DNA of 61,083 nt, the filler included, from Circinaria calcarea (taxonomy: Eukaryota), in NCBI GenBank assembly GCA_051942165.1. It is 11 parts of 11 records of this genome, joined end to end, with 100 filler letters (N's around TTAATTAATTAA, not from the genome) between each part and the next. Parts side by side here need not be neighbours in the genome. Positions count along the whole stretch, not along the records: positions 1 to 5,475 come from JAVECS010001889.1; positions 5,576 to 11,048 come from JAVECS010001890.1; positions 11,149 to 16,620 come from JAVECS010001891.1; positions 16,721 to 22,192 come from JAVECS010001892.1; positions 22,293 to 27,761 come from JAVECS010001893.1; positions 27,862 to 33,328 come from JAVECS010001894.1; 5 more parts are not named here. One strand, given 5' to 3'. This document shows, piece after piece, positions 1 through 31,493 of the stretch. Within the stretch, counting starts at the first letter, position 1; each line of letters starts with the position of its first letter. The notes beneath the pieces are model-generated. The model was not told the DNA's origin and ran no database searches. It saw only the letters and a list, made by a program, of their open reading frames with translations. The position numbers were made by a program, and so were the translations under genes.

Positions 1-26
1 TGTCTTCATGGCTGAATTAATTGCAG

Positions 27-468
27 ATATGGGATTTATTCGAGAACAGACACCTCTTCGACGGCCGCAATAAAACAAATAAAGAGTACTCCAACCGGCA
101 GCATCTTGCTGAGATGATAGCATATCTCGGGCCGCCACCAATGGAGTTCCTCCATCGAGGCAAAGAATACTCCGAGTACTTTGATAAAGACGGTAAGCTG
201 CCAACCCCTCTCATGGCTAGCAGTTGATCACTGCAGAACCTTGACTCCTAAGCACCAACTAACAACATGCTCGCCAGGAAACTGGAACGGTTTCATCGCC
301 ATACCCCAAAACCTGTCCTTGGAAGATTCCGAAGAGAATCTAAAAGGAAAGAACAAGGAGCTCTTTCTGCAGTTCATGAAGTCCATGCTACGGTGGGTGC
401 CTGAAGAGAGGAAGACCGCCAAAGAGCTACTTGAAGATCCGTGGCTGAATACGCCGGTGGAAACGTGA
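27..468 (+). CDS. SRPK-like (CMGC) Ser/Thr protein kinase, last two exons (5' part outside window)
   Basis: Exons 27-192 and 278-468 (intron 193-277, GTAAGC..CAG) give IWDLFENRHLF..HLAEMIAYLGPPP..FMKSMLRWVPEERKTAKELLEDPWL, the typical C-lobe of fungal SRPK-like kinases. Near-identical to the 3' end of the gene at 29828-31493. Confidence 0.9.
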
Positions 469-912
469 TATGCAAAAGAAGAATCGTAAAGGTGTTTCCA
501 AATGCCTGCCCCTAGCTGCTCTGCTCTGAAACCTTATTCGCCCTGAAAGTACAGCATATCGGATAGAAATTGCCCTGGGGGATCCTCTCAGATAGTACAC
601 CTCTTTGTGCCTGCCCTGTATGGCACTCCAGAATATAGTTCTGTATCACAGTCGATAAAGCCAGTTAGACGGACAATGCCGAATTGCCGTATCCTTTCAA
701 CTGCTTAATGGAGTCGACACCGACCTGAATGCCAGAGTGCCAGCTTGAGTTATACTCCATCCCACTGGTCGGGTATCTCAAACATACCGGGGGTTGTGTG
801 GGTGAATACGGTAGAGTGCGTGGGAGCTCGGAATGGCATCTCAGGGGGTGCGTGGCTGATATTCGCCGTCTATATGGATTATAGCGGCGTCTGTCCGTCT
901 TTGTCCTTACAG

Positions 913-2250
913 TCAACCTTCAACCCCTCCTGCCTCACGTAGCTGCTTAACCGCCTTTCCACACCTGTTCTCTACTGCCCACGATAGCGGTGTCCGTCCG
1001 TTCATATCTTTAGAGTTAATCTCAGCTTTGCCTGTTTCAAGCAGCAGTTTAATTACCGCTCCGCCTTGACCTGATCTTGCCCCAAAGACGCTCCCTGATG
1101 CCAAAGATAGTGGCGTTCGTCCGTTTTTATCCTTGAATTCGACGTCCACTTCGCCCGTTTTAAGCAGCTGCTTAACTACCGCCTCACGCCCATTTGCTGC
1201 TGCCCATGATAACGGCGTTCGTTCGTTGTTATCTTTTGAATTAATATCCACTTTGCCTGTTTCAAGCAGCTGCTTGACTGCCGCCTCATGCCCATTCGCT
1301 GCTGCCAATAATAACGGCGTCCATTCATCCTTATCTTTTGAATTAATATCCACTTCGCTTGTTTCAAGCAGCTGCTTAACTACCGCCTCATGCCCATATT
1401 GTGCTGCCAATGATAATGGCGTTCGTCCGTCTTTATCCTTACAATCAACCTCAACCCCTCCTACCTCAAGTAGCTGCTTAACTACCTCATACCCATTCGC
1501 TGCTGCCCATGATAGCGGCGTCCGTTCGTTCTTATCTTTTGAATTAATATCCACTTCGCCTGTTTCAAGCAGCTGCTTAACTACCGTCATATACCCTTTT
1601 CTTGCTGCCCATGATAGCGGCGTCCATTCGTTCTCATCTTTTAAATTAACATCCACTTCGCCTGTTTCAAGCAGCTGCTTAACTACTGCCTTATACCCGT
1701 TTCCTGCTGCCCAAGATAATGGCGTCCGTCCGTTCGCATCTTTTGAATTAATATCCACTTCATCTATTTCGAGCAGTTGCTTAACTACCGCTTCATACCC
1801 ACATTCTGCTGCCCATGATAGCGGCGTCCGTTCGTTCCTATCTTTTGAATTAACGTCCACTTCGCCTGTTTTAAGCAGCTGCTTAATTACTGCTTCATGT
1901 CCATTCTCTGCTGCGCATGATAGCGGCGTCTGTCCGTTCCCATCCTTTAAATCAGTATCTATTTCGCCTGTTTTAAATAGCAGCTCGACTACCGCCTCAT
2001 GCCCGCTTTTTGCTGCCCATAAAAATGGCGTTCGTCCGGTTATATCTTTAGATTCGATGTTCACTTTGCCTATTTTAAGCAGCTGCTTAACTACCGCTTT
2101 ATGCCCATTTTCTGCTGCCCATGATAGCGGCGTTCGTCCTGTTTTATCCTTAGAGTCAATTTCAACTTTGTCTATCTCAAGTAACTGTTTGACTGCTGCC
2201 TCACGTCCACTCCCTGCAGCCCGTGCTAGTGGCGTCCGTCCGTCGTCATC
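913..2250 (-). repeat. Array of 13 highly conserved ~102-bp (34-aa) ankyrin repeat units
   Basis: Recurring DxxGRTPLSWAAxxGxEAVVKQLLETGxVDINSK units with obvious nucleotide-level similarity. Confidence 0.95.
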
Positions 2251-5229
2251 CTTTAAATTAGCCTCGAACCTACCGGTTTCGAGTACAAGAGCCAAAATAT
2301 CGCTGTCGCCAAGTTCTGCAAGGTATGAGAGTACCGTTCTCCGGTTTGTGAATTTGAAGTTGCGTTTAAACTTGTTGATTCTGTCGTCGTCCTGGCAATA
2401 CTGGCTGCATAATTTGTGAAGCCGACTCCCGGGAGGTTGATCCAATGCAAGAGCTTGCACAAACGTTTCCACAGCTTCTTTACTCCCAGTTGCAAGGGCT
2501 GCAAAAAGAGGAGTCCCGTAACGCTCCTTTTCCACTTCAAAACACGATAGGATTGATGGATGGGCTTTGATGAGGTTGGGCATGTTGCCCTCCGCCAATA
2601 CATACAGGAGGGTCACATCTTTTGTATGCCTGCGTACTTCAGCCTTTTCAATCAGACTGTCAAGTATAATCCAACGGTCTAAGGGGAAGCTGTGGATAAT
2701 ATCCTCTTGAATGATATTCCATCCCGCAGCCGCATCTGCGTGGTATAGTACATTGCGTACGGCATACTCTAAGAAAGGAAATGCATTAGAAAATGATATG
2801 CGCTGGTTTGCAGTTACCAGTGATGAGGCTTTTAGATGACCTTTAGTGAGCTCCAGATAAATGAAAGTGTCAACATTTATATAGCTGAGACAACAACGCT
2901 TCAGCCGCTCGTGACTTTGACCTTGAAAGTTACTTCCGAGATCAGGCCTTATGGTTCGGAGCCCCTCTTCTTTTAGGAGAAAGTCCCTTACTGATTCGTG
3001 AATGAATTGGACTTTCCGAGTTTTAGATGTCGTGATTTCAACCAAGCCTTTAGATGAATTGGGTATGAATCTTTCAATGGCGTCTTTTGGGATCTCATCA
3101 AGATCCCACTTCGATGGGGTCTCGGGCACAGTACCAGCAAGAACAGCAAAGTATAACTGCTCGGGACTCAGTGGTACCCTCGAGAAAAGAATCCACTGGA
3201 CACACAAAATTAACTCATCTCTGTTGTTGGAGTCGCGTGTTAAAATATCGCGGAGAAGCTCGTGCAGGTCGCTAGGAATTTCTTGGAGTCTTCGACGAAG
3301 CGCGTGCATGCGGCCACCATCGTATTCCTTATTCAATATTCTTACAACGAGAACAACCCACATGAAGATCCCAGAGGCTTTCTCTTGAAGTTCTGCTCGT
3401 ATCTGCTGGGCCAGCTTACTGTGGCCAATATTTAACTCGCTGTTGAGATAGCTGGTTATATCCTGGCTGTGCCCTTCTTGCCTTTCTAGAACTAAACACT
3501 TTCCTTTCCGGATCGTGATGTACGGGTAGTGCCTGCTCGAAAAACAGATATGGAACTTGATGTCAGCTGATACAGCGAGTTCGCCAATTTCTTCAAAAAA
3601 GGATATCATATCCCGGATCTGGTTGTCGTCACATTCATCCAGGGCATCAATGAAACATACTACGGAGGACTCCCCAAGACTTTGTATAGCCTGTCCCAAC
3701 AATTCCTTTAGAGACTCGGCGCTCCATTGGCGATTTATGCTAATGCTTGACCTTGAAATACCGAGTGAGTCAAAGACTCCCTGTAGCGCTGGGAGTCGTT
3801 CGAGAAGCTGTAATAAAAGCGACCGATACGTCCCTATCGTTGATTTCTCCAGCTCCTCGCCTCGTGCGTTGAAAAAAAATGAGATGAGTATCTTATCCTT
3901 CATCGTCTTGCGGGCATTAGCAAGAGCAAATTTCAGCATTGTTGACTTTCCAGTCCCGGGTTTTCCTTTAATCCAGAAAAAGCCGTGATGCTCGCTCAGC
4001 TTAGTGTCATCAAGCCAGGTAAGGTATTCAGGATTCTTCAAGAGCCATTTACATGTCTTTGCGTGTGCGTTTTTAATAGTCAAGTACCGCGCATCAAGTT
4101 GTTCAAATCTCAGTGACGCTAACAGCATACTTACTTGCTCTTCGTTAAGTGAAATCGGGTTTCCTTGCCTACGGCGACTAGGAATTGAACTTATTATCCG
4201 GTGGAGGGCGTAGGCAACCTTTTCGTATTCGGCGTCGTAGGGTCCTGTAAAGCGACACATTTCCATATGGTTGCGTCCGATATGTTCGGTGACTTCGATA
4301 CCAGGAAGATTGAGGTAAGAGGATGTGTCCTCGACGACCTGGAAGCCCGGTTAATAATGTAATGGATTATACTGAGGGACTTACCTTATGGCCACCAAGA
4401 GCTGAGACGCCTACTTGTTCCTGGAACGAGTGTATCACCCAGTTTTGGTCAAGAATCATAGGGCTAAACTCATCCCTTAATTCCCTAAGGCGTTCTGCAG
4501 ATGGCAAAAGTGTGTTGACTATTAGCTCATTGACTGAAAACCCGGCCGCTTTAATAGCTTTTTCAGCAACACGCTGAAGAATGCCACGGGGATCCGCGCC
4601 GCCATGGGGGGTGCCAAAGAAGACGATACCGACCGTCGACTCAAAGGTGTGCCGAAGATGAGCCCGGCCTGAATCGCAGCTGCTCGACCTCCGTAGCATT
4701 TCTTTGACGACTATCCCTCCCAGACTGTGTACCACGAATAAGACTGGTCTCAATGGCTCTTCCCGACGCTTTGCCTCAAGGGCAACGAGAAAGTCCCACG
4801 CAATATCGTAGACAGTGTTCTTACTCCCGGGAGATCCCAGCTTATGCCTGATGTGTGTATCATAACCGAACGTCAAAACTCGCGCATTTGGGATGGTGGC
4901 AGGAATCAAGTCCCTAGGCCAGTATATAGCAGCGCGGGAGTTCTCCGGACTCAACTTGGAGAATGGGTTCAGCTTTCGAATTTTGGGAGGCGGTTCAGCA
5001 GATTCGTTGTCATCGGTGCGATGACTGACATCGCCTCTCTTGTGGGTCCACGTTCGTTCAGGGTGGCCGGTAAATCCATGGACGAATATGATGCTTTTCA
5101 GTCAGTATGAATGCCGCAGATAATGTATTTATATGCTTACTCTAGAGACTGCTCCTCTGGCTGGACAACTACTGTCAAACCAGCCGGAGGGATCGACTGA
5201 AGGCAGTTCATCTTGATCGAACAATCCAT
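913..5229 (-). CDS. Fungal NLR: N-terminal SesB-like alpha/beta-hydrolase + NACHT + ankyrin repeats
   Basis: Three exons (introns 5094-5140 and 4339-4384). Hydrolase motifs IIFVHGFTGHPERTW, YWPRDLIP, VVHSLGG (nucleophile elbow), FFGTPHGG, NHMEMCRF. NACHT Walker A GKPGTGKST, Walker B FIDALDEC, then FMWVVLV and QFIHESVRDFL. 13 TPL-type ankyrin repeats at the C-terminus. The start ATG (5229 or 5211) is inferred. Confidence 0.93.
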
Positions 5230-5475
5230 AGTTTTTCGCTCCGTGAAAGCTACGACGCATTCGCAAGGCTAGGCATTCAATATTGTGCGATCTGCCAATA
5301 CGGAGATCTAATTGGTCGCTTTACTCAAAATATATCCTATTTTGCCAAGCTTCCTAACGACTGATATGCCTGTAGACCAGTACGCACTTCTTGTTCAAGT
5401 TTTTAATAGATGAAATATCCATATAGTTGCAAACGCCTTACCTCACTGCCACCTCCGCAAGCTCCGGAGGCCTCA

Positions 5476-5575
5476 NNNNNNNNNNNNNNNNNNNNNNNNN
5501 NNNNNNNNNNNNNNNNNNNTTAATTAATTAANNNNNNNNNNNNNNNNNNNNNNNNNNNNNNNNNNNNNNNNNNNN
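5476..5575. other. Artificial contig-joining linker (100 nt: N-run, TTAATTAATTAA, N-run)
   Basis: Identical linkers at 5476-5575, 11049-11148, 16621-16720, 22193-22292, 27762-27861, 33329-33428, 38896-38995, 44457-44556, 50002-50101 and 55546-55645. The core has stops in all six frames, and the intervening contigs decrease in length (5473 to 5444 bp). Confidence 0.98.
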
Positions 5576-5639
5576 CTCGTGACCCCGGTAAATAGTTCCC
5601 CCGTAGGGTTCGTAGGGGTTCTCGGGTAAAGCCCTTACA
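5576..5639 (-). mobile_element. Terminal fragment of a TGTAAGG..CCTTACA LTR-like repeat family
   Basis: Reverse complement matches 50455-50520 (TGTAAGGGC..ACCCCTACGAACCCTACGGG..GGTCACGAG). Located at a contig start. Confidence 0.75.
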
Positions 5640-6106
5640 TTTGTCTCACGGTGTAAAGCCACCCACATTATGTAACAACCATGCGGTACGACCGAGCCTC
5701 TCGATTTAGCTTTCTAGCCCCGGAACTTAGAATACATCTTACTTTATAGAATCCGTACCGCAGCTTACAGAGTTTTGATACTCCCGGCATCACGCAATAC
5801 TCTATTGAGGAAGTGTGAGAGGACTCTGATGAGGTCATCTGGTGTTACAATTACTGGTGCTAATACTAACATGCAGCTTGGCGGCATCTTGCATTTAGTT
5901 TTAAAGTATTTTCATTATGTACAAGAGTTTACTAGTATGCACGCACAGTACCATAAGTGAGAGTATGCCGCGGTCAGAATTTTCCGAGTCCGGAATTATC
6001 AGGAGGCTGTTCTTATTTATATTTTTACTCGATTGAAGAGTATTTGAGACTTAGTGTGCTTATCCTCTTTAGAATACGTTGCTCTATCTTTTGTACGCCA
6101 GGCATT

Positions 6107-7633
6107 ATGTCAGATCAGTCATCCGTCAGCGATCCGGATGGGATCACCGGAAAACTATGCAACTGGGCCTATAACTTAGAGCTCTCCCAAGTACCCCAAG
6201 CCCAACAAACCAGAGCCAAACACATCATCCTCGATGGGCTCGCGTGCGGTATCGTCGGCGCCCACTTGCCATGGTCCGAAACCGCGGCTAAAGCAATCTT
6301 CGAATTAGAACCGTCTGGCACTTGCTCCATCATCGGATGGGAGAGAAAAACCAGCGCGCTTACCGCAGCCCTTTTAAACAGTACCTTTATCCAAGGCTTC
6401 GAGCTCGATGATTGGCATTCGAAGGCTCCTCTTCACAGTGCCTCCCTGATCCTCCCGGCGCTGTTTGCAGCAATCGAGCATGTCCGGACCACCGCTCCTG
6501 ATTCTTCGCCAATATCCGGTCAATCTCTTCTCCTCGCAACGATTGTAGGTTTCGAAACTGGACCACGGATCGGACTCGGTCTAGGCGGAGTAGACATGCT
6601 CTCTCGCGGATGGCACAGCGGAGCTGTATTCGGAGGGCCGGCGGCAGCACTGGGTGTGTCGAAATTGCTGGCTCTCTCGCCACGACAGATGGAATGGGCT
6701 CTCGGTACGGCATGTACCCAGGCTGGAGGTCTCATGTCTGCACAGTTCGAAAGCATGGCGAAGAGGTAAGGTCTCTAGAATCCTTGTGCAATCCCTGATG
6801 CTTCATTCCTTTCTGTTAAAACAATCGACAGGATGCAACACGGATTCGCCTCTCGTAACGGCCTTACCGCTGCCCTCCTGTCTCGAGCCAGCTATAGTGG
6901 CATCGAGCGTGTGCTCGAACGCTCCTACGGTGGCTTTCTCAGCACCTTCACCCAAGGCGCGAAAGCCTCTCCTCCGTACAACGCCGATGCCGTCTCCGCT
7001 GGGCTTGGCGAACGCTGGGAAATCGACAGTATCCGCATCAAACCGTATGCAGCAATGGCGACCCTGCACGCGCCGATTGATTGCATCAGGTTACTGCAGG
7101 AGGAGCAGGGAGAACTTCTGAAAGACGTCAAGCGGATGAAGAGTGTCCGGATCGAGATGGGCGAAGCGGCGTTCAAGCATGGAGGATGGGAAGTGGAGAA
7201 GAAGCCTCTGGAAGCGACAGGCGCGCAGATGAATGCCATGTATGCCGTTGCCGTTCAACTCGTCGATGGAGAACTCTTGCCATCGAGCTACAAGCCTGGA
7301 ATGCTGGAGCGGGACATACTCTACGACTTGATCGACAAGACGAACTGCGTGCATCGCGAAGAGTTCAATGGGAGTTTCAAGACCAGAATCAGGATTGACT
7401 TTGAGGGAGGTGAAGAAGCCGTGGCGACGGTGGAGGCACCGCGGGGCGTCTCCCCGGAAATAGCGAATGAGGAAATTGTGGAAAAGTGGATGGGGTTGGT
7501 GGGAGAGTTGATCGATGAGAAAAGACGGGAACAAATCCAAAGGACCGTTTTGACTATGGAGGAATGTGGCCACGTGGAACTGGAACAACTAATAGGTAAT
7601 TTGGGAAAGGCTGCAGCATGCGCTTTGGATTAG
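6107..7633 (+). CDS. cadA: MmgE/PrpD-family protein, cis-aconitate decarboxylase (CadA/IRG1)-like
   Basis: Exons 6107-6765 and 6832-7633 (intron GTAAGG..CAG). Motifs AKHIILDGLAC, FIQGFELDDWHSKAPLHSAS, GFETGPRIG, GWHSGAVFG, ACTQAGGLMSAQF..KRMQHGFASRNG and VLERSYGGFL closely follow Aspergillus terreus CadA as recalled. Confidence 0.82.
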
Positions 7634-8276
7634 AATATGATATCTATAACAAGGGCATCAACAAACCCCACGCCTCTTTTGGGGGAGGAATAGAGAGGTA
7701 TAAATTCTGCTCAAATGGGCCAAGCTGGGGTGGCAGAATATATATCATTAGCCTGCTCGGTTTAAACTCTTAGATTTTTCCCTAAAATACTAAAGGATCT
7801 CATATCATCCTTCCCTAAAACTCCCCTCCACCCCGGATACCAATCCACCAAAAAAAAGAGAAATATCTAATGTGGAATATATCCCATATCCAAGTCGCCC
7901 GGTCGAGACCCCCCGATCCAGATTTAGTGATCCCTTCCCATTTTCTTCATCTCCATCCTATTCCCTCCATACTTTAAACCCCCTCCCCGGGCCCCTTACC
8001 CTTGATGAAATGCCTATGGTCACGTTGTGCCTAAGCATTTGGAAGGGGAAATGAATAGGGGCAAGCTATCTTATTACTATGGGTTTATAGTAGTATTTAT
8101 GGTAGTCATGACCCTATAGCTTGCCCACTTTGAAGCGGAGCAGCAAATATGTAAATAAAAGGTTCAATGAACCTCCGGGAGCATTCTGTATAGAATGCGT
8201 GGGTGTGCAGAACTTCTGCACGCAAATCTACACCTTCCACTATATTCCAACAAAGAAATAGCCCGAGCATAATGCC

Positions 8277-10193
8277 TTATCTTGTTTTACTCGGACAGTT
8301 GTCCCACAAAGGTCTCACGACACCTTCGCATACCGACTTTCGGAGCTCAACATCATCCCACTGCAAGGTAGGAAAACTGCTCGCAAAAGTACCCTCAATA
8401 CATCGACAGACAGGGTCCAAATAAAAGGGCAAAATGTTATCGGCTGTGTCGTCAAGCCACTTTTTGGAGGCTTCGTAGCGTGACCCGTAGGTACTGTTCA
8501 AATCCAAGCTCACTTCAGCGACGTACGCTTCCAATGAAGTGACGTGCCATATTTCGAGTAGAAGAATGCCAAGTTCGAGTAGAGATTGCTTCGCACTTGG
8601 CGGGCTTCCTACCTCGGACCGTAGGTCTGCCGGAAAGTCGCAAGTAATAAAAGGTTGATTCGCATCAAACCCCAATGCTACCTTGTCAGCCGCGCATGAG
8701 GGATGAGTGCGAAGAAAGTAGATGCCTTGCTTGGTCCAAGACCTCCCAAGCCATGGCGTTGTATGTAGTTGAAGGAGAGACGACGCCAGCCTGTGTGCTA
8801 AAACTATGCGTTGATTCCAGCTCCACCTCTTGGCGAAGTCTTTGGTCTCCTTAGCCTCTTGCAGTAGGCAATCCAAGGTTGTAATATCTGGAGCCGAATC
8901 TGACACGCATCCCCGTGACAAGGGCAGTGGAGGACAATGACAAGAGGTAAACTGACCACGCTCGGAGAGGTAAAGCTTAAGCAACTTGTTTTCGCGGGAT
9001 GCTTGGCTTAGTGATAGACAAATGTTCTGCACATTGGCTCTCAGCGGACCATCGCGAGCTGGTAGATTGATGGTGATCCTCGACCTTCTCACAGGTTCAA
9101 CTGACGTAGACCTATTAAAAGGGTATTAGTAGACGCTCTGATAATACGATAAACTCCTTCCCTTGGCACACACCCAGATTCGTGAAACTGTGCTTCATCG
9201 TCGTTGAGGACGTCAACTTGCGCGTAATGCCACGCGTTTTTTGCTCCAGACGCTGCCATTGGACCAAGCTCGATTTGAAACGTTACAAGAGGCTTCTTTT
9301 TAAGCATTGGCGATGAGCAATCTGAAAGATAGAGATTCGTACGGTGCGAGGTATGACAGCCTGTAGCCCATCCCGCAGAGATCGCAGAGTAGAGACAATT
9401 GCTATACTTCTGAACTTTGCTTAAAAAAGTTGTCAGTTTCACTGTCGTTCTTGAGGGAAACGCCGGAATGTCTTCATCGTGCATAAGGGTCCCGGAAATC
9501 CGCAACCTATCGAGCATTGCGGTTGATTTCTGAGGTTATCAATCTTTTGATCAAGCTCATCCTTTTTAAGAGCGAATTTGATCCTTCGGCCAGTCTGACG
9601 CCATCCAACATCTTCAGCTGAAGAAGCGTTGGTTTCAATGAGTTTCTTTAAAAACTCTGAATCAACCTGCACCTGCTTGCACTTAGTCCATGCGTGGAGG
9701 TGTGTATTCTGGGAGCAATTGGCAGACAGTACTACCAGTTATCTGGCACGAAAATGCAGCAGCAACGACTTCTAATCGATAGATTGAGACTCACTTCAAC
9801 AGTGTTTCCAGACACCAACCCAGATATGCTTCGAGCAATGTCTGCAAGGTTCCTCTCGCAACTCATTAAAGCGTTCCGATAGGGCTTATAAACCTGTCCC
9901 AAGTACTTTGCAACTGCATCTCCTACATCCTGATGTTGCAGAAGTTCGCAGTAGTTGGGAACATTCAAAGCGGCGACCTCTTCATCTTCGATATCCGCGG
10001 CTCTTAAAAGTAGCTTGAGGTCTATCTCTATCAAAACTTTTTGCTCCTCGAGTGCTTCAATTAGGCGATCAACCATTAAGGCCTTGCTCCGGGAGCGACG
10101 CCATATATCATGTGTAGTCTTGTATTGCTTAAGGCCCCAGACAACGACGGGCAGAGCTCCAAGGATAATGCCTACTACCTCGATGCCACTCAT
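8277..10193 (-). pseudogene. HeLo-like N-terminal helical domain + C-terminal degenerate kinase-like (DUF7580-type) domain, with an apparent 1-nt frameshift
   Basis: The N-terminus MSGIEVVGIILGALP is typical of HeLo-like/NLR effector domains. The C-terminal region reads RIVLAHRLASSLLQLHTTPWL..WTKQGIYF..PFIT..LLELGILLLEIW. Near 9525 the frame shifts (..KIDNLR / KSTAMLDRLR) with no intron signals. It could be a pseudogene or an assembly error in an A-run. Confidence 0.65.
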
Positions 10194-10417
10194 TCTAAAA
10201 TATAGACGGTAGCCATTAATAATGTTGCGCGACGGAGCAAGACCATTGAGCTCAGCTTCCAGGTCTTTAGCCTCTCGGAATGGGACAGACCCGATTGGAT
10301 AGATTAGAATAGTAACACTGGGACCACCGAAGAGCAGAGGAGAAAAGGTTTGCCAAATCCTTTACGCCGGCTTGTTTCTACAAAACATTTGGTTAGCATT
10401 TTGTATCTGCGCAAACT

Positions 10418-11048: not shown

Positions 11049-11148
11049 NNNNNNNNNNNNNNNNNNNNNNNNNNNNNNNNNNNNNNNNNNNNTTAATTAA
11101 TTAANNNNNNNNNNNNNNNNNNNNNNNNNNNNNNNNNNNNNNNNNNNN

Positions 11149-11978
11149 TTCCTTGACAGATACGGGCATGAAATGAATCCAACTTATCTTCATAAGTTCT
11201 CGGAGAGATGTCGGTCTTCAGAGACTGGTACTCCAGCCGCCGGGAAGATTTCTCGGCCTTTTCATAGTGCGATAGAGCTTGCAACTGAGCATTGTGCTCC
11301 TCCTGAAGATGCTCTAAGCGAACCTCGCGTCTCAAGAGCAGTTTATGCCGGTTGATTTGATCCCTTACAAGATCAATCTTTTCTCGTTGCTTTGTCCACA
11401 TCGATTCAAAAATCAATTTCCAGTCTCAGAAAGCTATATATTAGTTTTCTGGTTATATGTCGAAGCTCTGAGGCAAACTCACATGTTCTGCGGAAGAATT
11501 TCAGGACGATGAGATAGAAATCCAAGATATCCCGGAAAAAGAGAACCAGTACATCTTTGATGAGCTCATTGTGGCCGAAGAGCTTGGTGACTCCTTGAAA
11601 TTCTGGTAGCAGGAGACCGATATCCGCGAATGCATCGACGATGGCATCGAACGAAGTCTTCATATTGTGAGTCCAATGCAGGAGGAGCTTTATAGGACCC
11701 CAGATCAGAGCCAAAACATCCTGTTTTGCCTGGATAAAAACCTCTATGACCTGGGCATAGCTTCTGAGACCTTCAAGAAAACGCTGGATCTTGGCCAAGT
11801 GGCGAAGATGCCCCTTTTCTGCCTGCTCTTTCTGGATCGCGTCGGTGGCATCGTATACCTCCTCGATGGATTTCGTCTTCAGAATATCTCCCAAGAGCTT
11901 CTGGTCCCCCAGCGTGGCCTTGAAGTCACGGACGGCATTCTCGAAGGCGACTTTGATCGGATCATCCGGAGCGGCCAT
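11149..11978 (-). CDS. 5' part of a NACHT-type NLR (N-terminal helical domain), truncated just before the NACHT
   Basis: IQRFLEGLRSYAQVIEVFIQAK..LALIWGPIKLLL..LPEF..DILDFY is characteristic of the N-terminal domain of fungal NACHT proteins. An intron starts at 11482 (GTGAGT). The contig ends at ..FHARICQG, the pre-NACHT motif. Confidence 0.75.
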
Positions 11979-12253
11979 TTTTGGGTCTCAGGTATGACCG
12001 ATTGCGACAAGATAGGAATTTCTGCTTTATGGTAAGAGACCGCTCCGTGGCGATGCCGGGGCTAACACAGCCCCCCATCAGAAACGTGGAACCTAGCCAA
12101 CATCCAGTCGCGTGCATGATTGGAAAGTTCTTATTGGACTAGTTTTGCGGTAACTTAGCAAAAGCAAAGCGCGATATTAAGTAGCCCAAGCGCTTACTGA
12201 TTCAGCATATGGAGATAGCCTTGTTCTCAAGGCGCATCTAGATTCTTCTTTCA

Positions 12254-22292: not shown

Positions 22293-23452
22293 CGTTTCAT
22301 AAACAGATCAGGTATCCATAGAGCGAAAAAAAGGTCTCGAGCGCGAACTTCTTCTTTTCCGTGGTTCTTCCGTAGGTCCAGGAATTCAAAAACATCTGCA
22401 TGCCACGGCTCTAAGTAGATAGCAAAAGCCCCCGGGCGCTTGTTTCCACCCTGATCGACGTATCTAGCAGTGTTGTTGAAGACCCGCAACATGGGTACAA
22501 TTCCATTGGAAGAGCCATTGGTACCCCCGATGTAGGATCCTGTCGCTCGAATGCGGTGTATGTTTAGACCGATACCGCCAGCAGTTTTGGATATCATAGC
22601 ACAGGTCTTGAGGGTATCATAGATCCCCTCAATGCTATCTTCCTTCATGTCAATCAAGAAACAGGAGGCCAACTGGGGATTAGGGGTCCCAGCATTGAAG
22701 AGAGTGGGAGATGCGTGCGTGAAATACTTCTGGGACATTAGGTTGTAAGTCTCAATTACCTTTTCGACATTGTCCTCATGGATCCCCACTGCAACACGCA
22801 TGATCATGTGTTGAGGTCGCTCAGCTATTTTGTCGTCAATCCGGAGCAGGTAGGATCGCTCCAAGGTCTTGAAGCCAAAAAATTGATAGTTGAAGTCTCG
22901 ATCGTAGACGATTGCCGAGTTTAGTTCCTCTGCATGCCTCATGACAATATCATAGGTTTTTTGGGAGATCATGGGGGCCGGTTGATGGTTCTTGGGGTTG
23001 ATGTAATGGTAGAGATCCGAGATCACAGAAGAGAACTGCTTCTTCGTTTGCTTGTGGAGGTTGGATAGTGCGATACGGGCAGCAAGGATGGCATAGTCGG
23101 GATGAGTGACCGTCATGTAAGCAGCAGTCTCAGCCGCCTAAAGAGATTGGTAAGTACAATATACCCCAACAGCGGGGATCCGGCCCCAAACATATTTCAC
23201 TCACGAGGTTGTCGAGCTCAACTGTAGTAACTCCCTGGTAGACACCCGAAATAACCTTCTGGGTAATTGCGGCAGCATCAACATGGTCAGCATCTAGGCC
23301 ATAGCAGAGCCTTGAGACACGAGCAGTGATTTTGTCGAATTGCACACGCTCTTTGCGTCCATCTGCAAGTAAAGATTTGCATCAGCAATGAGTCTGGTCA
23401 CTAAAATGCCATGCACGGGTGTTGAATACTTACCACGCTTCCAAACGAACAT
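22293..23452 (-). CDS. RNR1: Ribonucleoside-diphosphate reductase large subunit (5' part, truncated at contig end)
   Basis: [21 protein letters not shown] (introns 23363-23433 and 23138-23204), followed by [32 protein letters not shown] and [21 protein letters not shown]. Confidence 0.97.
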
Positions 23453-23613
23453 CTTGAGATTTAAGACCAGCACAAGGCGGCAATGAAAGAGGATAAGGTG
23501 GTGTTTGATTCTAGATACTCAATCAAAGCGTAAGAATAAAAAGTAGTCTCGAAGAGCGCAGAGAAACTGATGTTGCAAAGACGACGGAAAGGCGGGAATC
23601 TATTACAAGTTGG

Positions 23614-23640
23614 ACGCGAGCGTGTTAAGTGATTTCGCGT
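23614..23640. promoter_or_regulatory. Paired MCB/SCB-like ACGCGA motifs upstream of RNR1
   Basis: ACGCGA at 23614-23619 and TTTCGCGT (ACGCGAAA on the minus strand) at 23633-23640, about 160-190 bp upstream of the ATG. RNR large-subunit genes are established MBF targets in ascomycetes. Confidence 0.6.
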
Positions 23641-24576
23641 AGCCAGACACGAAAAGTGGACTTTACTATATGCGGTTAGAAAATTATCTCCGCAGCCATA
23701 GGTATCTAGAAGATACAATATCGATTTGACCTAACACTCAAGCTGATAGATTGCTAATTATCGCTGCGGTAGTAAGCGGCAATCCCTGGTGGCTTTCGTT
23801 ATTGTATCAACAAGTTCCTCACTCGCTATGAAAGCAATATCAATGCTATCAATATATCTAATTTAGTCCCGGACTCATTGCTTTAGGTACGGTGGAAAGT
23901 GAAATCCTATACCAGTTCTTTCAAGTCTAACAGACTACTAGCATCCTCGAACGAATCCATTTCAGTCAAAGGACAGTAGCTGAGGGGAAAGATAAATCAC
24001 TGATGATAGCCTCTAGTCATTACACAACTTGATAATCAAAATCTCCACGTTGACCCACCGGACGGATATAGCCCGGTTCGATGAACATCCAGCAGGGCAA
24101 CCTTCTTGAAAATCTGTACAGGTACGTGGAAGAATTAAACTCATCTGTTCTCTTCTCGATCGAAGGGGGTTAGCTACTAGTAGCCAGTAAGAACGGATTC
24201 TTTCATCGAAGATGGAGAAGGAATTTGGGTATCTGTTACTCATATTATAAGTACTGTACTCCAGGGTCTTTATCATCAATGGCTTGGCGGCTCTGTTGGA
24301 TGGGAATAAGGAACTCATACTGCACTATCCAGTACCTGTTCTCGAAAGTCATGAGATGGCCGCAAACCCTTATTATTGTGGTGAGTATCAGAGTAGTCTC
24401 TGCTCATGAATGCCAGTATCAAAGGTAGTCAAAGCCTAGTACTGCCCGAAACATAATATAACACTACCAAAATATATACCATCATCTTGCTATGTCTAAC
24501 AACTCGTCGTGGCCGCTCACAGTCCACACTTAGGCTCCACTATTGTTTACCTCATTCGTAGAGAATCCTGTTCGAC

Positions 24577-25972
24577 CTATGACGAGGTCAAACTATCATT
24601 TCTCTTGTTGGGACTATCGGTCCATGTTATATCATGTCGTACCATTATAGACTGGAGATGCATGTCATCTGGGCTAGGGTTGCCAACCGTCGGGGTTGAC
24701 GGAGGTTCCTTTGTGAGCCCGCCCTTGTCAACCTCTGGTTTTGCACCATTCACATTTGACTTGGGAATATGCTGAAACTGCCGGAGATTACTCTGCGATC
24801 TCTCGGGCGAGCTGCGGTTGGAGCGGAAGTTGTTGTGGAAGCTACTGCGAAGCTGCTCCCAGTGGATGCGTATGTTGAGGAAGGGGGTCATAGTAGGAAG
24901 ACATGCAGAGAGGACTTCGACAGCCAGCTCAATTAGAGACCAATTACCTATTTCAGTTGAGTCTGCAGTGTAGTTGTCAGTTTTGTGTCTCACGGCGGGC
25001 CATTGCTAATCAGACCAGCAAAGCAATTGTCATTGGAAACTTACATGTTATATCTGGCTGGTTGATCCTTGTAATCAGAATGGCCAACCGAACGATTGCA
25101 ATAATGACGGAACTATGGCAAGATATCAGAGCTTATTTGGTCAAAGTACGCAATGAATACTTACAAGCCACCAAGCAGGAAAATTGCTCCCACACTTATT
25201 TTTTTTGCCCCTTGAAAGCTGGAGGTGATACACCGCTGACATGGGCAAAGCTAAGATGACGGCATCTAAGATGATGTTGGGCACCTGCATGGCAATGAAG
25301 AAAGTCAAAAAGTTGATACAACTACCAGGAAGCTCGAACTCCCAGGCCTTTTGGACGGGCTTGCACAGAAAGGCGCCTAGGAAGTTGTTGACAAGGAGCC
25401 AGACGATTACAAAGATTCCGACGATAAGAGTCCATCGACGGAACTTAGGTGTTGAGAAGACTCGCCGATAGAAGAGAAGTACCGAAACCTTGACTAGAGT
25501 GATAGAGACACCATAGAGCTGGGACGAAATATAAATAGTCTACAGCGGTTAGCCAAATAGGTAGATAAGAAGAGAAGCGTATAAAAAGCTGAGTATATAT
25601 CTTGAGATAATTCACAATATCATTAGGACTGAGGGTGGTTATGTGCCTTCCGTCACCGTAACGTATAGCTCAACAGGCGAGAATGTTAGTATTTTCTTTC
25701 ATCCCTATTAATAATATTACCAAGCTCACAAAATGGATAAATAACAGCGTCGCCGTCAACGAAGAGCTAAATTATAAGATTAAATCATAATAGATTAATA
25801 TTCCGTCAAAATGAACTGGACTCACAGCGGCTAAAACAATCACATAATCATCTGCTTTTAGGAGGAGCCCTAATAGTTTCCGGGATATTAAGCGTAATAA
25901 TACGGAAACGTTCACAAGTATTAGTGAAATTACCAAAGCGATTACCGTCTGATAAGAATTATCGTCCAGCAT
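24577..25972 (-). CDS. PTH11-like integral membrane protein (fungal rhodopsin domain, no CFEM), multi-exon
   Basis: Motifs VLLRLISR..LKADDYVIVLA, TLVKVSVLLFYRRVF, CKPVQKAW, PNIILDAVI and WSLIELAVEVLSACLPTM, followed by a Ser-rich cytoplasmic tail. Confidence 0.85.
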
Positions 25973-26383
25973 TCCTTTTCTGTATATAGCAATTGATATG
26001 ATTGTAATGATGTTATTCAATAAAATAATAAATGCAACAGCAGAAGTTGAGAAACCTTTTTATAAGCCTCGAGCGTCTACGGCAGAAACTCAAATCAAAC
26101 GGTGATTAGTTCTTTTAGATTTGATAAGCCTGAATACAAGTTTAATTAATGGCGGAGGTCTGATTGGTTTGATACGTATTCCGTCTGACTTGTAGTTATT
26201 ACGGCGTGGTAGCTCTCACAAGTCCATCTTACATGCAGCCTTCAGAAGGAAGGCAGCCAGCTCCACTTTGCATGAAGGCGGCCAGCTCCGCTATGCATGA
26301 AGGCATGCTCCGAAGTCCAGATGTTATTGTATATAAATAAAAGTGGGTTGATTACGAGGCGGCTCAATATACTTTGGATTATA

Positions 26384-26624
26384 TAAATCATAGATAGCTC
26401 GGGTTAGACTCTTCCATTAATGCACGTATTATATAGAGTTAGATATAAAATACCGTAGAATAATAATCTCGTAAAAGATAATACGCTTAAGTAAGAATTA
26501 TTAGCTGAATTAAAAATATGTTTCTGTTATTAAGTATACCGTACCCTATCAGTAATAAAAGCGGCATTGCATAAGGGGTTTATAAATACCACGAAGGATT
26601 CTAGCCCGAGCTGTCTGTGATTTG
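26384..26624. mobile_element. TA-flanked Tc1/mariner-type MITE (241 bp) with one RIP-mutated TIR
   Basis: Left TA|TAAATCATAGATAGCTCGGGTTAGA versus right reverse complement TA|CAAATCACAGACAGCTCGGGCTAGA. Four differences, all C>T. AT-rich interior. Confidence 0.75.
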
Positions 26625-26981
26625 TACTGTAGTTGAGGCGGCCGGCTCGGGTATCTAGTTGCCGGCCGCAACTATGTCGGTCTGCCGCTGAAGGTAAGTA
26701 CGGTAACAAAGCAGGAGAGTGCGGCAGAGTACAGTTGGTGGCACTATTTGTAATTTCTACCGACGTGCCAACTTTGCCTCTATAATGCAGGACCATCTCC
26801 AGCGGTCTCGAAACCAAGGGACACGAATCTCGGCTCGGCCGATGTCATTACAGCTTCCGATAATGCAAAGGGTCTTTGAAATCTACGAAGTAGGTAGTAC
26901 TCCCCAAGATTGTGCTTAAAAACAAGTGGAGATTTGGTTTATTTATATGCTTCTGTACTTCATTGAGTCTCGGGATTCACC

Positions 26982-27761
26982 ATGAGTCAATCAGAGGCGT
27001 ACATGCTGGCAAGAGATAGCAAGGAGTCCAAACGCCTAGACTTCCAGCACGAATTCATGCGGCATTTAGGACATGGCAATATCCTCCATCCGTCGATTCC
27101 CCGTGGCGAGCTTCGGGCAGTTGCGGACCTCGGGACGGGCACAGGAGTTTGGATCAACGAGATAGCAGAAACCTTCCGGGCCTCCACAGCTGGGGATACT
27201 AGCAAATTCGAGTTTGTTGGATTTGATATTTCGCCGCAGCAGTTTCCGGCCAGCCCCAACTGCTCTCCCGGTGTTGACTTTGTCGTCCATGACATGACAA
27301 CTCGGTTTCCAGAGAAATACCATGGCGTTTTTGATCTTGTCAATATCCGGTTCATGTACTATTCTTTGAAGGCACAAGACCTGCAAATTGCTTTGGAGTC
27401 GGTCATAGAAATCCTACGTAAGAATAAAATTCTTCAGTGTGTTGGGACACAATGAGGCTGACGGAATTCTTTCGCAGGGCCGGGCGGCTACCTTCATTGG
27501 CAGGAAATCGATATCGTTGACGTATGGGCAACACCGTCGACCCCCAACGTTCGAGATGCGATCACCCATGTTGTTCTGGAGAAAGTGGCCAGGGGCTTAA
27601 TTCATCCGTATTACTCTCAAGCTCCCTCTATATCATTCACCCAATATGCGCTGCTAATTAGCAGTGAGCTGATTGTCTTCTGATCCCAGGTTTCCCATAA
27701 AAATCGTGAAGGCAATACTATCACTTTCCATTGGGACCCCGACTATAGACGGTACAAACTC
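26982..27761 (+). CDS. SAM-dependent methyltransferase (LaeA-like class I), 3' truncated
   Basis: YMLARDSKESKRLDFQH, VADLGTGTGVW, FVGFDIS, FDLVNIRF, then after an intron PGGYLHWQE. Confidence 0.88.
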
Positions 27762-27861
27762 NNNNNNNNNNNNNNNNNNNNNNNNNNNNNNNNNNNNNNN
27801 NNNNNTTAATTAATTAANNNNNNNNNNNNNNNNNNNNNNNNNNNNNNNNNNNNNNNNNNNN

Positions 27862-29407
27862 CTTCAAATTCTCAAACCGGAGAACGGTACTCTCATACCT
27901 TGCAGAACTTGGCGACAGCGATATGTTGGCTCTTGTACTCGAAACCGGCAGGTTCGAGGCTAATTTAAAGGATGACGACGGACGGACGCCACTAGCGCGG
28001 GCTGCAGGGAGCGGGCGTGAGGCAACAGTCAAACAGCTACTTGAGATAGATAAAGTTGAAGTTGACTCTAAGGATAAAAAAGGACGAACGGTGTTATCAT
28101 GGGCAGCAGAAAATGGGCATGAGGCGGTAATTAAGCAGCTGCTTGAAATAGGCGAAGTGGATATTAATTCAAAAGATGAGAATCAACGGACGCCGTTATT
28201 ATGGGCAGCAGAGAGTGGGTATAAGGCGGTAGTTAAGCAGCTGCTTGAAACAGGTAAAGCTGAGATTAACTCTAAAGATAAGAACGGACAGACGCCGCTA
28301 TTATGTGCAGCAGTAAATGGGCATGAGGCGGTAGTTAAACAGCTGCTTGAAATAGATGAAGTGGATATTAACATTAAAGATAAGAACGAACGGACGCCGC
28401 TATTATGGGCAATAATACATGAGCATGAGGCGGTAGTTAAACAGCTGCTTGAAATAGATGAAGTGGATATTAACACAAAAGACAAGAAAGAACAGACGCC
28501 GCTATCATGGGCAGCAGAATGGGGGTATGAGGCAGTAATCAAGCAGCTGCTTGAAATAGGTGAAGTGGATATTAATTCAAAAGATTATAACGAACGGACG
28601 CCGCTATCATGGGCAGCAGAGAATGGGCATGAAGCGGTAATTAAGCAGCTGCTTGAAACAGGCAAAGTGGATATTAATTCAAAAGATAAGAACGGATGGA
28701 CACCGCTATCATGGGCAGCACAACATGGGTGTGAGGCGGTAGTTAAACTGCTGCTTCAAACAGGCAAAGCTGAGATTAACTCTAAAGATAAGAACGGACG
28801 GACACCGCTATCGTGGGCAGTAGAGAGCAGGTGTGAAGGAATGGTTGAGCAGCTGCTTGAGGCAGGAGGGGTTGAGGTTGATTGTAAGGATAATAACGGA
28901 CGGACACCGCTATCTTGGGCAGCAGAAAAAGGGCATGAGGCCGGAGTTAAGCAGCTGCTTAAAACGGGCAAAGTGAATGTCGAATCCAAGGATAACAACG
29001 GACGAACGCCACTATCTTGGGCGTCAGGGAGCTACACTGGGACAAGATATTCTGAAGGCAGAGCGGCAATTAAACTGCTGCTTGAAACAGGCAAAGCTGA
29101 GATTAACTCTAAAGATAAGAACGGACGGACACCGCTATCGTGGGTAGTAGAGAACAGGTGTGAAGGAGCGATTGAGCAGCTGCTTGAAATAAGCGAAGTG
29201 GATATTAATTCAAAAGATATGAACGGACGGACGCCGCTATCATGGGCAGCAGAATGGGGGTATGAGGCAGTAATTAAGCAGCTGCTTGAAACAGGCAAAG
29301 TTGAGATTAACTCTAAAGATACGAACGGACGGACACCGCTATCATGGGCAGCATATTATGGGTATGAAGAGGTGATTAAGCAGCTAGTTGAGGCAGGAGG
29401 GGTTTGA
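27862..29407 (+). CDS. 3' part of a second copy of the NACHT-ankyrin NLR (14 ankyrin repeats)
   Basis: Starts FKFSNRRTVLSYLAELGDSDMLALVLETGRFEANLKDDDGRTPLARAAGSGRE, nearly identical to the gene at 913-5229, followed by a different array of repeat units. Confidence 0.92.
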
Positions 29408-29827
29408 AGGTTGATTGTAAGGATGAAGACGGACAGATGCCGCTATATTTCATATAGACGGCGAATATCTGCCACGCACCCTACCGTATCACCCACGGCA
29501 CCCCAGGTATGTCTGAGATACCTGACCAGTGGGATGGAGTATAACTCAAGCTGGCACTCTGGCATTCCGGTCGGTGTCGACTCCCGTTAAGCAGTTGAAA
29601 GGATACTGCAATTCGGCATTGTTCGTCCAACTGGCTTTATCGACTGTGATACAAAACTATACTCTGGAGGTGTCATACAAGGCAGGCACAAAGAGGTGTA
29701 CTATCTAAGAGGATCCCCCAGGGCAATTTCCATCCGACTTGCTATACTTTCAGGGCGAATAAGGTTTCAGAGCAGAGCAGCTAGGGGCAGGCATTTGGAA
29801 ACACCTTTACGATTCTTGTCTTGCATA

Positions 29828-31493
29828 TCACGTTTCCACCGGCGTATTCAGCCATGGATCTTCAAGTAGCTCTTTGGCGGTCTTCCTCTCTTCAGGCACC
29901 CACCGTAACATGGACCTCATGAACTGCAGAAAGAGCTCCTTGTTCTCTCCCTTGAGATTCTCTTCGGAATCTTCCAAGGACAGGTTTTGGGGTATGGCGA
30001 TGAAACCGTCCCAGTTTCCTGGCGAGAATGTTGTTAGTTGGTTCTTGGGAGTCAAGGTTCTGGAGTGATCAACTGCTAGCCGTGGGAGGGGTTGCCAGCT
30101 TACCGTCTTTATCAAAGTACTCGGAGTATTCTTTGCTTCGATGGAGGAACTCCGTTGGTGGCGGCCCGAGATATGCTATCATCTCAGCAAGATACTGCCG
30201 GTTGGAGTACTCGTTGTTTGTTTTATTGCGGCCATCGAAAAGGTGCTTGTTCTCGAACAAATCCCATATCTACAATCAATTCAGCCAAGAAGACATAGGG
30301 AAGGGCTGCTACGCGAAAGGCCAAGCCACGGGCCTTCATGGAAAAACTGGTAGTACGGAAATGTTGTTTGATGTTGGAAGGTATGAGAGAACAGCCATGA
30401 TATTCTAGCCGCATACATAACTAACAAACAGATGAATATGACCACCGATATGTAGCCGACTCACCATAATACCAATATTCCATATATCTACACTATAACT
30501 CCACTTCATCTCCAATATCACTTCTGGCGCCCTGTAAACCTCCGGCTGAATGTCATCTTCGTTTTCGACATCTCCAGCTCTGGCCTCTCCGAAGTCGCAC
30601 AACACAGGATGCCCATAGGACTTGGGAAGGCCAAGTTCTCTAGAAGCGTAGACAGTCCGATCCTTGTAAACTTTCTGCAGGCTCGGACTCTCCATCTCCG
30701 CATTCTCAAAATCCATGAGAATAGATTCATCCTCGATCTCCTGTAGAAGGTTGCTCGCTTTAATGTCTAGGTAATTATCAGCTATACCCGAGATATGATA
30801 GTCTCTCCAGCGACCGTCCTCATTCAAAAAGTGGTACAAATATGACATACCGGTATGTATGACCTTGCATTCACTGTGAAGGTAATCCAGTGCAAGAAAG
30901 ATATACTTCAAAGCACCTTTCAGCAGAGCTTCAGTGAACTTCCGTTGCGGATGGCGCCTCTGAAGATCAAACAGGCTCATCCACAAGGGCTTATGAACAA
31001 GGCATTGATGATGACCATGACGCCAGGAAATCTCAAACGAGTCGAGTATCGTTCTAACACAGGATCGACCAGGATGAGAAAAACTGGCCGCACTCAAGTG
31101 CCTATAGATTTCGACTTCCCTATTCACTCCGCTGGCTTCACGACTACGAGTGTAGACCTTGACGGTAGCATAACGATTTGACCTTTTTCGGAAGATTTAG
31201 TATACGGAATGCCCAGGGCCTTGCTGCGGGCTGTATGGTACACACTTGAGATCCCGAGATAGCCACACTGTAGAGTTTGCTCCATACCCGAGCTTACCCA
31301 GCACGCGGTATCTCGAGTTGAGAAGTTCGCCCATGCGAACCGGGTAGAAGTCGGCGGCAGAATAGGCTGGAAGTTTCTCCTCGTCGAGCTTTTGCACAGG
31401 ATCTGCGATACCGCGTTGGAGGCTGCGAGTATGTATCTGCCTGCTTGGTGCCCTGAGAAAGCAGCGTCTTCCCCGCTTTGTGATTGCTAGCAT
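29828..31493 (-). CDS. SRPK-like (CMGC) Ser/Thr protein kinase, complete, multi-exon
   Basis: FYPVRMGELLNSRYRVLGKLGYGANSTVWL, YATVKV, VIHT-DIKASNLL, VLCDFGEAR, IQPEVYRAPEV, VDIWNIG, MLRWVPEERKTA. Introns include 31183-31245 and 30270-30464. Confidence 0.92.

Follow-up and report, generated by a model that had tools for sequence, protein, structure and literature searches.

The locus described here raises the question of whether two separate contigs, each carrying an ankyrin (ANK) repeat array next to a protein-kinase gene, are real versions of a single fungal NOD-like receptor (NLR) locus and, if so, how their arrays came to differ. The stretch analysed (the window) is 61,083 bases of Circinaria calcarea DNA (assembly GCA_051942165.1), and consists of 11 contigs of a fragmented assembly, arranged in decreasing order of size, from 5475 down to 5438 nt, and joined by ten artificial spacers of 100 nt. 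Contig 1 (c1, positions 1-5475) was compared with contig 6 (c6, positions 27862-33328). The results indicate that c1 and c6 are probably real, diverged copies of one Pezizomycotina gene pair, in which an NLR gene of the sesB-like/NACHT/ANK type converges on an ordinary kinase gene.

Two Contigs Carry Diverged Copies of the Same Gene Pair

An all-against-all BLAST comparison of the 11 contigs revealed c1 and c6 as the sole mutually similar pair: 45 high-scoring segment pairs of at least 150 nt were obtained, and all of them matched c1 with itself, c1 with c6, or c6 with itself. A first-pass annotation of the window, made from the sequence, had proposed that positions 1-2359 align with the reverse complement of 27862 to about 30295, and this was confirmed. 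The alignment extends over ca. 2.4 kb in opposite orientation (1-2359 with 27862-30295), and covers the kinase tail, the intergenic spacer, and the ANK array. The corresponding features are the following.

1-468, plus strand: 3' end of the protein-kinase gene of c1, cut by the contig end; its open reading frame (ORF), 121-468, ends ...EERKTAKELLEDPWLNTPVET
469-912, no strand: convergent intergenic spacer of c1, from NLR stop to kinase stop
913-2337, minus strand: ANK array of c1, 14 units (the cap, twelve more whole units, and a terminal part-unit)
27862-29407, plus strand: second ANK array, in c6 (22 nt of pre-repeat sequence, 15 units, and a stop)
29408-29827, no strand: intergenic spacer of c6, 92.9% identical to that of c1
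29828-31553, minus strand: protein-kinase gene of c6, complete, with several introns (Pkinase, E 1.4e-13)
31197-31553, 30405-31196, and 29828-30175, minus strand: ORF pieces of the c6 kinase, with VIHT...DIKASNLL, CDFGEA, and YRAPE

Outside the arrays, the two copies differ at about 6% of positions. The kinase tail (1-468; segment 1-626 against 29670-30295) is 94.2% identical between the contigs, the identity of the spacers was calculated over 411 aligned nt with five small gap events, and identity is 95.1% over the first 226 nt on the NLR side, which comprise the 22 nt of pre-repeat sequence, the cap unit, and unit 2. The flank is evenly diverged along its 900 nt. The 56 flank substitutions comprise 40 transitions and 16 transversions, in both directions, and no CpA/TpG bias of the kind left by repeat-induced point mutation (RIP) was found among them (an A follows 6 of the 23 C/T differences, and a T precedes 6 of the 17 G/A differences). 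The reading frame is open in each ANK array, and the last kinase exon has kept its protein sequence in c1 as well as in c6. The first-pass annotation had described the differences as scattered substitutions only; this description holds for the flanks and for the ends of the arrays (93-95% identity), but not for the array interiors, where identity falls to 72-81% in a collinear alignment. The possibility that the contig ends are assembly-graph junctions between the copies was rejected, because mismatches are located 8 and 11 nt from the ends.

The kinase is recognizable in both contigs. In c6, the HTD...DIKASN, DFG, and APE motifs can be read across the introns, while the tail present in c1 matches profile positions 227-263 of Pkinase (E 0.0017). 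The adjacency implied by the term "NLR-kinase locus", which the annotation had used, is seen twice. A functional tie between the two genes did not receive support: in a tblastn search with three kinase pieces, none of 51 related metagenome loci showed a neighbouring kinase, and many of these loci are short of downstream DNA. The kinase is therefore taken as a neighbour of the NLR gene rather than as a part of the system.

The NLR Gene of Contig 1 Encodes a Hydrolase-NACHT-Ankyrin Protein

Contig 1 contains a complete NLR gene, whose elements are listed below.

913-5229, minus strand: complete NLR gene, three exons, product of 1407 aa
5141-5229, minus strand: exon 1
5094-5140, minus strand: intron 1, with GT..AG ends
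4385-5093, minus strand: exon 2
4339-4384, minus strand: intron 2, 46 nt, with GT..AG ends, interrupting the hydrolase domain
913-4338, minus strand: exon 3, stop included
4240-5093, minus strand: alpha/beta-hydrolase (sesB-like) domain, with HSLGG at residue 152, GTPH at 190, and NHMEMCRF at 289
3532-4056, minus strand: NACHT-type NTPase core (Pfam NPHP3_N, E 5.2e-31), residues 95-269 of exon 3

The spliced frame has 1407 codons and a single stop, at its end, and the sequence created by the second splice junction, between GGHK and VVEDTSS, is uninterrupted in homologues. A Walker A motif, GKPGTGKS, is present at residue 391, and the two arrays match Pfam Ank_2 with E values of 9.6e-101 and 3.2e-115. 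The features that define an NLR, namely, a NACHT domain with Walker A, C-terminal repeats, and an N-terminal effector, were all found, the effector in c1 alone. The c1 gene is thus a fungal NLR in which a sesB-like alpha/beta-hydrolase domain, NACHT, and an ANK array are combined. Contig 6 begins 22 nt before the cap unit, and of the second NLR the window holds only the ANK part.

Searches with the NACHT region returned 3523 relatives at E <= 0.001 among 7999 that were scored. The closest protein in a large protein database is at most 74% identical to the c1 NLR, and the best named relatives are proteins of Lepidopterella and Cenococcum, at 73-74% identity. The 51 related metagenome loci mentioned above came from JGI; the closest of them (L001) is 74% identical, and no near-identical third version was found among them. 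In 43 of these 51 loci, the hydrolase domain precedes the NACHT match; the architecture is common. The three nearest metagenome relatives (L001, L002, and L003, at 72-74% identity) end 450-660 nt past their match to the NACHT region, inside ANK arrays; assemblies tend to break within arrays of this type.

The N-terminal domain was studied by sequence and by structure comparison. When the N-terminal 236 residues of the protein were compared with Pfam, the only match was Abhydrolase_6, below threshold at E 0.0067. No NCBIfam match to the domain was obtained, and a search of PDB sequences yielded chance-level matches only (E 0.46 and above). The domain belongs to a large family, with 6497 representatives at E <= 0.001, mostly located at residues ~30-270 of proteins longer than 1000 aa. 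An AlphaFold (AF2) model was built from 38 aligned sequences; it stops short of the exon 3 part of the domain (~60 residues at the end), and its mean predicted local distance difference test (pLDDT) score is 77.5. When the model was compared with 48,161 chains using VIA-align, all 50 matches listed were alpha/beta-hydrolases (Z 8.7-11.4), and the top match among those listed was phospholipase PlaB (Z 11.4, root-mean-square deviation 3.5, 170 aligned residues). Most of the top Foldseek matches were thioesterases, lipases, or esterases, a few had unrelated folds, and no Foldseek match reached E <= 0.001. Judging from the model, the domain has an alpha/beta-hydrolase fold.

The motifs of the domain are widely conserved. 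An xSxGG motif, the nucleophile-elbow class to which HSLGG belongs, is present in 135 of 150 homologues, and a motif of the GTPH class is present in 137 of 150. The [DN]Hxx[MLI]x[KR] motif, corresponding to NHMEMCRF, is found in 85 of the 150, many homologues being fragments. By its motifs, the domain probably has a putative catalytic Ser152, in HSLGG, together with the Asp of VVEDTSS and the His of NHMEMCRF. It is assigned to the sesB-like lipase/esterase domain class of fungal NLRs, with predicted activity of this type. The claim that the locus encodes a fungal NLR with a lipase-like effector thus agrees with the NACHT and ANK matches in Pfam and with the alpha/beta-hydrolase fold of the model.

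The Arrays Differ by Gain and Loss of Whole Repeat Units

When the divergent N-terminal cap (TVLSYLAELGDSD...) is counted, the c1 array consists of 14 units and the c6 array consists of 15. The whole units of c1 comprise eleven of 34 aa, one of 33 aa, and one of 41 aa. The longest one carries a 7-aa "ASGS" insert, and has a counterpart in c6:

994-1116, minus strand: 41-aa unit with the 7-aa ASGS insert, unit 13 of c1
29006-29128, plus strand: 41-aa ASGS-insert unit, unit 12 of c6, counterpart of unit 13 of c1

With the cap excluded, these numbers reproduce the 13 and 14 units of the first-pass annotation, as well as its placement of the insert unit 12th in c1 and 11th in c6. One unit of the AVE[N/S]RC type is present in c1 (unit 14) and two are present in c6 (units 10 and 13), again as proposed, and the earlier lists of dipeptides that follow AA match the units as parsed here. 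The 7-aa insert follows TPLSxAS, and the sequence at this place reads SVFGARSGQGG in c1 and SYTGTRYSEGR in c6. A narrow regular-expression search for an ASGS-type insert unit gave no hits in 120 homologues.

At the DNA level, units are 74% identical within c1, 76% identical within c6, and 75% identical between the arrays, so that the identity of the arrays in the collinear alignment is no better than that of any unit to any other. A maximum-likelihood tree of the 29 units, with bootstrap, was used to identify cross-contig relationships. Unit 2 of c1 pairs with unit 2 of c6 (bootstrap 100), unit 12 of c1 pairs with unit 11 of c6 (bootstrap 93), and the two insert units pair with each other (bootstrap 100); the caps are also paired. 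Thus, the arrays are anchored at both ends, by the cap and unit 2 on one side and by the insert unit with its predecessor on the other. Units 5 and 6 of c6 pair within that contig (bootstrap 96), a tandem duplication, and units of an EAGGVE type (c1 units 9 and 14, c6 units 10 and 15) form a group with a bootstrap of 99.

A unit-level dynamic programme produced the following map of c1 units to c6 units: 1-1, 2-2, 3-3, 4-4, 5-5, 6-7, 7-8, 8-9, 9-10, 12-11, 13-12, and 14-15. The units left over are c6 unit 6, c1 units 10 and 11, and c6 units 13 and 14. The two arrays therefore differ by gain or loss of whole units of 102 nt; three events suffice to explain the difference, and wholesale reshuffling is not needed. 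The first-pass annotation, which described the arrays as reshuffled and not collinear, went further than required; the units can be mapped collinearly once the three insertion or deletion events are allowed for. The best c6 match falls on the collinear path for only 5 of the 14 c1 units. The off-path best matches are weak evidence for true reordering, and seven of these nine go to c6 unit 3 or unit 8, the two most consensus-like units.

The terminal unit of c1 may be a trace of such an event. Its first 11 codons are identical to those of c6 unit 13 but for one base, while its last nine codons are nearest to c6 unit 15. The unit looks like a fusion of a head of the c6-unit-13 type to a tail of the c6-unit-15 type, and a chimeric terminal unit of this kind is the expected product of an unequal exchange that deletes two units.

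Replacements Cluster at Binding-Face Positions

In the designed ankyrin repeat proteins (DARPins) of Binz et al. 2003, certain ankyrin positions were reportedly randomised because they form the binding face. The six positions of the DARPin-randomised set, fixed before any counting was done, were used as the binding positions in our analysis. The variable columns 8, 9, 38, and 41 of the units considered here correspond to DARPin-randomised positions.

The entropy of the aligned units peaks at columns 8 and 9, which are the two residues after AA, at column 18 (H/Y/C/R), and at column 38, the first hairpin residue after KD. The concentration of variation at the two residues after AA and in the beta-hairpin, claimed by the first-pass annotation, is therefore real (columns 8, 9, and 38). 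Differences were then counted in 12 disjoint nearest pairs of units, each with at least 80% identity. The six binding positions showed 32 non-synonymous and 4 synonymous differences (pN/pS 1.45), as compared to 60 and 37 elsewhere in the unit (pN/pS 0.54; Fisher p=0.003). The annotation had named a lack of non-synonymous excess at ligand-facing positions as counting against its proposal; an excess was found in the sense of enrichment relative to the rest of the unit, which stops short of showing diversifying selection. Replacements cluster at the binding-face positions of the ANK units. The two insert units, which are the best-anchored pair, were also compared. A hand count from their alignment gave 14 non-synonymous differences and one synonymous difference, of which 14 of 15 are located in or around the 7-aa insert and one is at column 38, while columns 22-37 and 39-41 (19 codons) show no difference.

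Site likelihoods were calculated with our own script, under an MG94-like model on a single unit tree, an assumption that recombination between units violates. The highest non-synonymous rates were obtained for columns 9, 18, 8, and 38. Pooled omega was 1.34 for the prechosen set of positions, 1.8 for a post hoc set, and 0.56 for the rest. In single-site tests, beta was significantly above alpha at column 7 only (p=0.04).

Alternative Explanations

The observation of two diverged copies, with 14 and 15 units, is compatible with more than one origin. There is nearly an even chance that c1 and c6 are a single locus in two haplotypes or strains, as would be found in a heterokaryon, a mixed thallus, or co-assembled relatives, possibly as old balanced non-self alleles. 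Gene order, orientation, and the whole spacer are kept, as expected of one locus, and both contigs break in or beside it. The flanks lack RIP-like bias, which a duplicate in a RIP-proficient haploid genome should show. Furthermore, two metagenomes from elsewhere carry versions of the NACHT/N-terminal part of c1 at ~93-95% identity (records of 1101 nt with 63 other letters and of 1403 nt with 67 other letters), and variants at such a distance therefore exist in nature. Four observations point the other way. A difference of 6% in non-coding DNA is large for alleles within a species, except where selection preserves them. The flanks remain equally diverged along their 900 nt, the contigs do not end at graph junctions, and no other similar pair is present among the 11 contigs (twins would sit elsewhere in an assembly ordered by size).

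Duplication, within one haploid genome, of a segment that includes at least the kinase-NLR pair, followed by ~6% divergence and independent gain and loss of units, is an alternative origin that is only slightly less likely. The NLR family is described as very large and subject to fast turnover (PMC13449251), divergence is uniform across coding and non-coding flank, and the open ANK frames and the conserved last-exon protein sequence of the kinases also speak for it. Such a duplication must take in the neighbour gene and the spacer exactly, and it left no RIP signature, although the strength of RIP in this lineage may differ.

A search of sequencing runs for further versions of the locus returned two matching metagenomes, one from biocrust (X1) and one from rock (X2), which share 0.15-0.16 of the words of the query. 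At an 85% threshold, their contigs are 90-95% identical to parts of c1, with pieces of the array joined differently. These matches indicate only that relatives at such a distance occur elsewhere; they carry no information on depth, allele status, or habitat.

The variability at the binding face could also result from neutral decay, with surface positions of the ANK units simply unconstrained and diversifying selection not required. We regard this explanation as possible, though less likely than not. It accounts well for an omega of 1.0-1.8 at the variable positions, which is never significantly above 1, and for the fairly relaxed omega of the framework (0.54-0.56). It accounts less well for the sharp localisation of replacements, of which the insert units, with 19 unchanged codons in columns 22-37 and 39-41, are an example. 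In addition, positive selection at five positions, probably corresponding to those considered here, has been reported for Podospora ANK NLRs (PMC4986451). The annotation had called the receptor "actively diversifying"; the part of this claim that stands is the higher ratio of non-synonymous to synonymous differences at the binding face (p=0.003), while omega above 1 is not significant.

Mis-assembly or chimerism in one array or in both, which would make the unit numbers and orders unreal, is improbable. Short-read assemblies of repeat-rich fungal NLRs are reported to omit or create units, and short-read assembly of internally conserved NLR repeats is accordingly described as unreliable (PMC12222747). 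Contig 6 starts 22 nt before its array, and the metagenome relatives L001-L003 also end 450-660 nt past their NACHT-region match. Within the c6 array there are exact repeats of 60 and 53 nt, and the two arrays share identical stretches of 47-50 nt. On the other hand, roughly a quarter of the bases differ between units, exact repeats in the c1 array reach 36 nt at most, neither frame is interrupted along its 14 or 15 units, and the flanks differ by substitutions with a normal ratio of transitions to transversions, not by error-like indels. With reads of at least 100 nt, collapse or chimerism is unlikely.

Finally, we consider it highly improbable that c1 and c6 are long-lived balanced haplotypes of a non-self locus, with an island of ~6% divergence that spans the kinase and an NLR and a kinase that co-diverge as a sensor-target (guard-guardee) pair, an arrangement that is apparently undescribed for fungal ANK NLRs in the literature consulted.

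Several points weigh against the view that c1 and c6 are real copies of one NLR-kinase gene pair with a variable sensor. With a small k, the identical stretches that the arrays share (up to 50 nt) would permit chimeric assembly paths. The NACHT and effector parts of the second copy are outside the window, and a whole NLR is assumed there. The two matching sequencing runs contain only contigs with 90-95% similarity, which come from other samples. With respect to selection, when all unit pairs are considered, pN at columns 8, 9, 18, and 38 equals the global pS (ratios of 0.98-1.04, compared to 0.49 for the average column), likelihood-ratio tests for omega above 1 gave p values of 0.6 or 0.2 for the prechosen positions and 0.09 for the post hoc set, and relaxed constraint could explain the binding-face pattern. 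The high synonymous divergence between units (uncorrected pS 0.42) means that homogenisation by recombination is not strong. Lastly, hydrolase activity, ligand binding, and a cell-death output are predictions drawn from the family.

Other Features of the Window

The contigs of the window are separated by artificial sequence, and any feature that crosses a spacer is therefore artificial.

5476-5575, 27762-27861, and others starting at 11049, 16621, 22193, 33329, 38896, 44457, 50002, and 55546, no strand: artificial spacer N44-TTAATTAATTAA-N44

Open frames of the other contigs match Pfam families that are typical of filamentous fungi: DUF7580, DUF7708, fungal rhodopsin, P450, and RNR1. The RNR1 fragment has a best match of 93% identity in a large protein database, with matches across many Pezizomycotina classes; the protein is too conserved to give a finer taxonomic placement. 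The genes of contigs 8 and 9 may be fragments of secondary-metabolite clusters. A tandem repeat in contig 11, at 60491-60689, has a period of 14 (also 42) and ca. 12 copies, with 80% matches.

8280-9125, minus strand: DUF7580 domain, contig 2 (Pfam)
11409-11987, minus strand: DUF7708 domain, contig 3 (Pfam)
22295-23137, minus strand: fragment of RNR1 (ribonucleotide reductase large subunit), at the end of contig 5 (22293-27761)
39265-40131 (plus strand), 40606-41001 (minus strand), 47249-47692 (minus strand), and 49128-49706 (plus strand): genes of contigs 8 and 9, i.e., 2OG-Fe(II) oxygenase and O-methyltransferase, P450 and UbiA prenyltransferase

Discussion

If the c1 protein works as is established for other fungal NLRs, its ANK array would act as the sensor of a ligand, whose binding would lead to oligomerisation through NACHT. 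Oligomerisation would activate the N-terminal serine hydrolase, and the active enzyme may then attack lipids or esters, causing a cell-death or defence response. New specificities could arise through unequal crossing-over of the 102-nt units, combined with either selection or relaxed constraint at the surface of the array. The locus represents one more sesB-like/NACHT/ANK receptor whose sensor varies by gain and loss of units and by replacements at the binding face, in a Pezizomycotina lineage that is unsampled to judge by the best matches of its RNR1 (93%) and NLR (74%). A change of unit number and binding-face variability are already described for this class, and knowledge of fungal NLRs in general is unchanged by the finding. 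The locus would be convenient for a population study: its units are only moderately conserved, and the arrays can therefore be assembled from short reads, unlike the near-identical repeats of HET-D and HET-E.

The set of variable positions resembles that of DARPins incompletely. Columns 36 and 39, which are randomised in DARPins, are not variable in c1 and c6, where the former is an invariant K and the latter is mostly N. Column 18 is variable here, and is a framework H in the DARPin consensus; the present units also have one extra loop residue.

A sesB-like lipase/esterase domain was listed among the effector domains of fungal NLRs by Dyrka et al. 2014, sesB-like/NACHT/ANK proteins included (PMC4986451). 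Like the sesB-like domain described in that work, which is related to human SERAC1, the c1 domain is an N-terminal alpha/beta-hydrolase with an HSLGG-type elbow located before NACHT; unlike it, the c1 domain matches no curated Pfam model at cut-off. The same source reports the sesB-like/NACHT/ANK architecture, polymorphism of ANK repeat number, and positive selection on the concave face for fungal NLRs. A spacing of 34 residues, the unit length found here, predominates in 57 of 120 homologues.

Known systems of this kind can be classed by high internal conservation (HIC) of their repeats. The criterion of Dyrka et al. 2014 is repeats more than 85% identical over 100 aa or more (PMC4986451), and the c1 and c6 units fall below it, at 62% protein identity (mean pairwise value between whole units 0.62, both arrays) and 74-76% DNA identity. 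A 2026 Podospora study used a T-REKS Psim value of at least 0.7 (PMC13449251); a Psim-like score of 0.75-0.76 was obtained for our arrays by our own calculation, made without T-REKS on units that we delimited ourselves. A difference in repeat number between versions, 14 as compared to 15, is a further HIC feature. The analogy to the "highly conserved repeats" of HET-D and HET-E, which the first-pass annotation had drawn, does not hold, since the units are only moderately conserved, below the 85% level.

By description rather than by sequence, the closest known counterpart is Podospora anserina Pa_7_10370, a sesB/NACHT/ANK protein with units of a non-canonical length, 34-35 aa as compared to 34 aa here, and with unit numbers that vary between versions (PMC13449251). 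It differs in being classed as highly conserved internally, while the c1 and c6 units share 62% protein identity. HET-D and HET-E of Podospora, which belong to the HNWD family, are likewise NACHT NLRs whose arrays gain, lose, and exchange units and whose specificity depends on a few hypervariable positions (PMC13449251, PMC12222747). In these proteins, a HET effector is combined with 42-aa WD40 repeats that are 80-100% identical, whereas the proteins considered here combine a hydrolase with ANK repeats of ~75% DNA identity.

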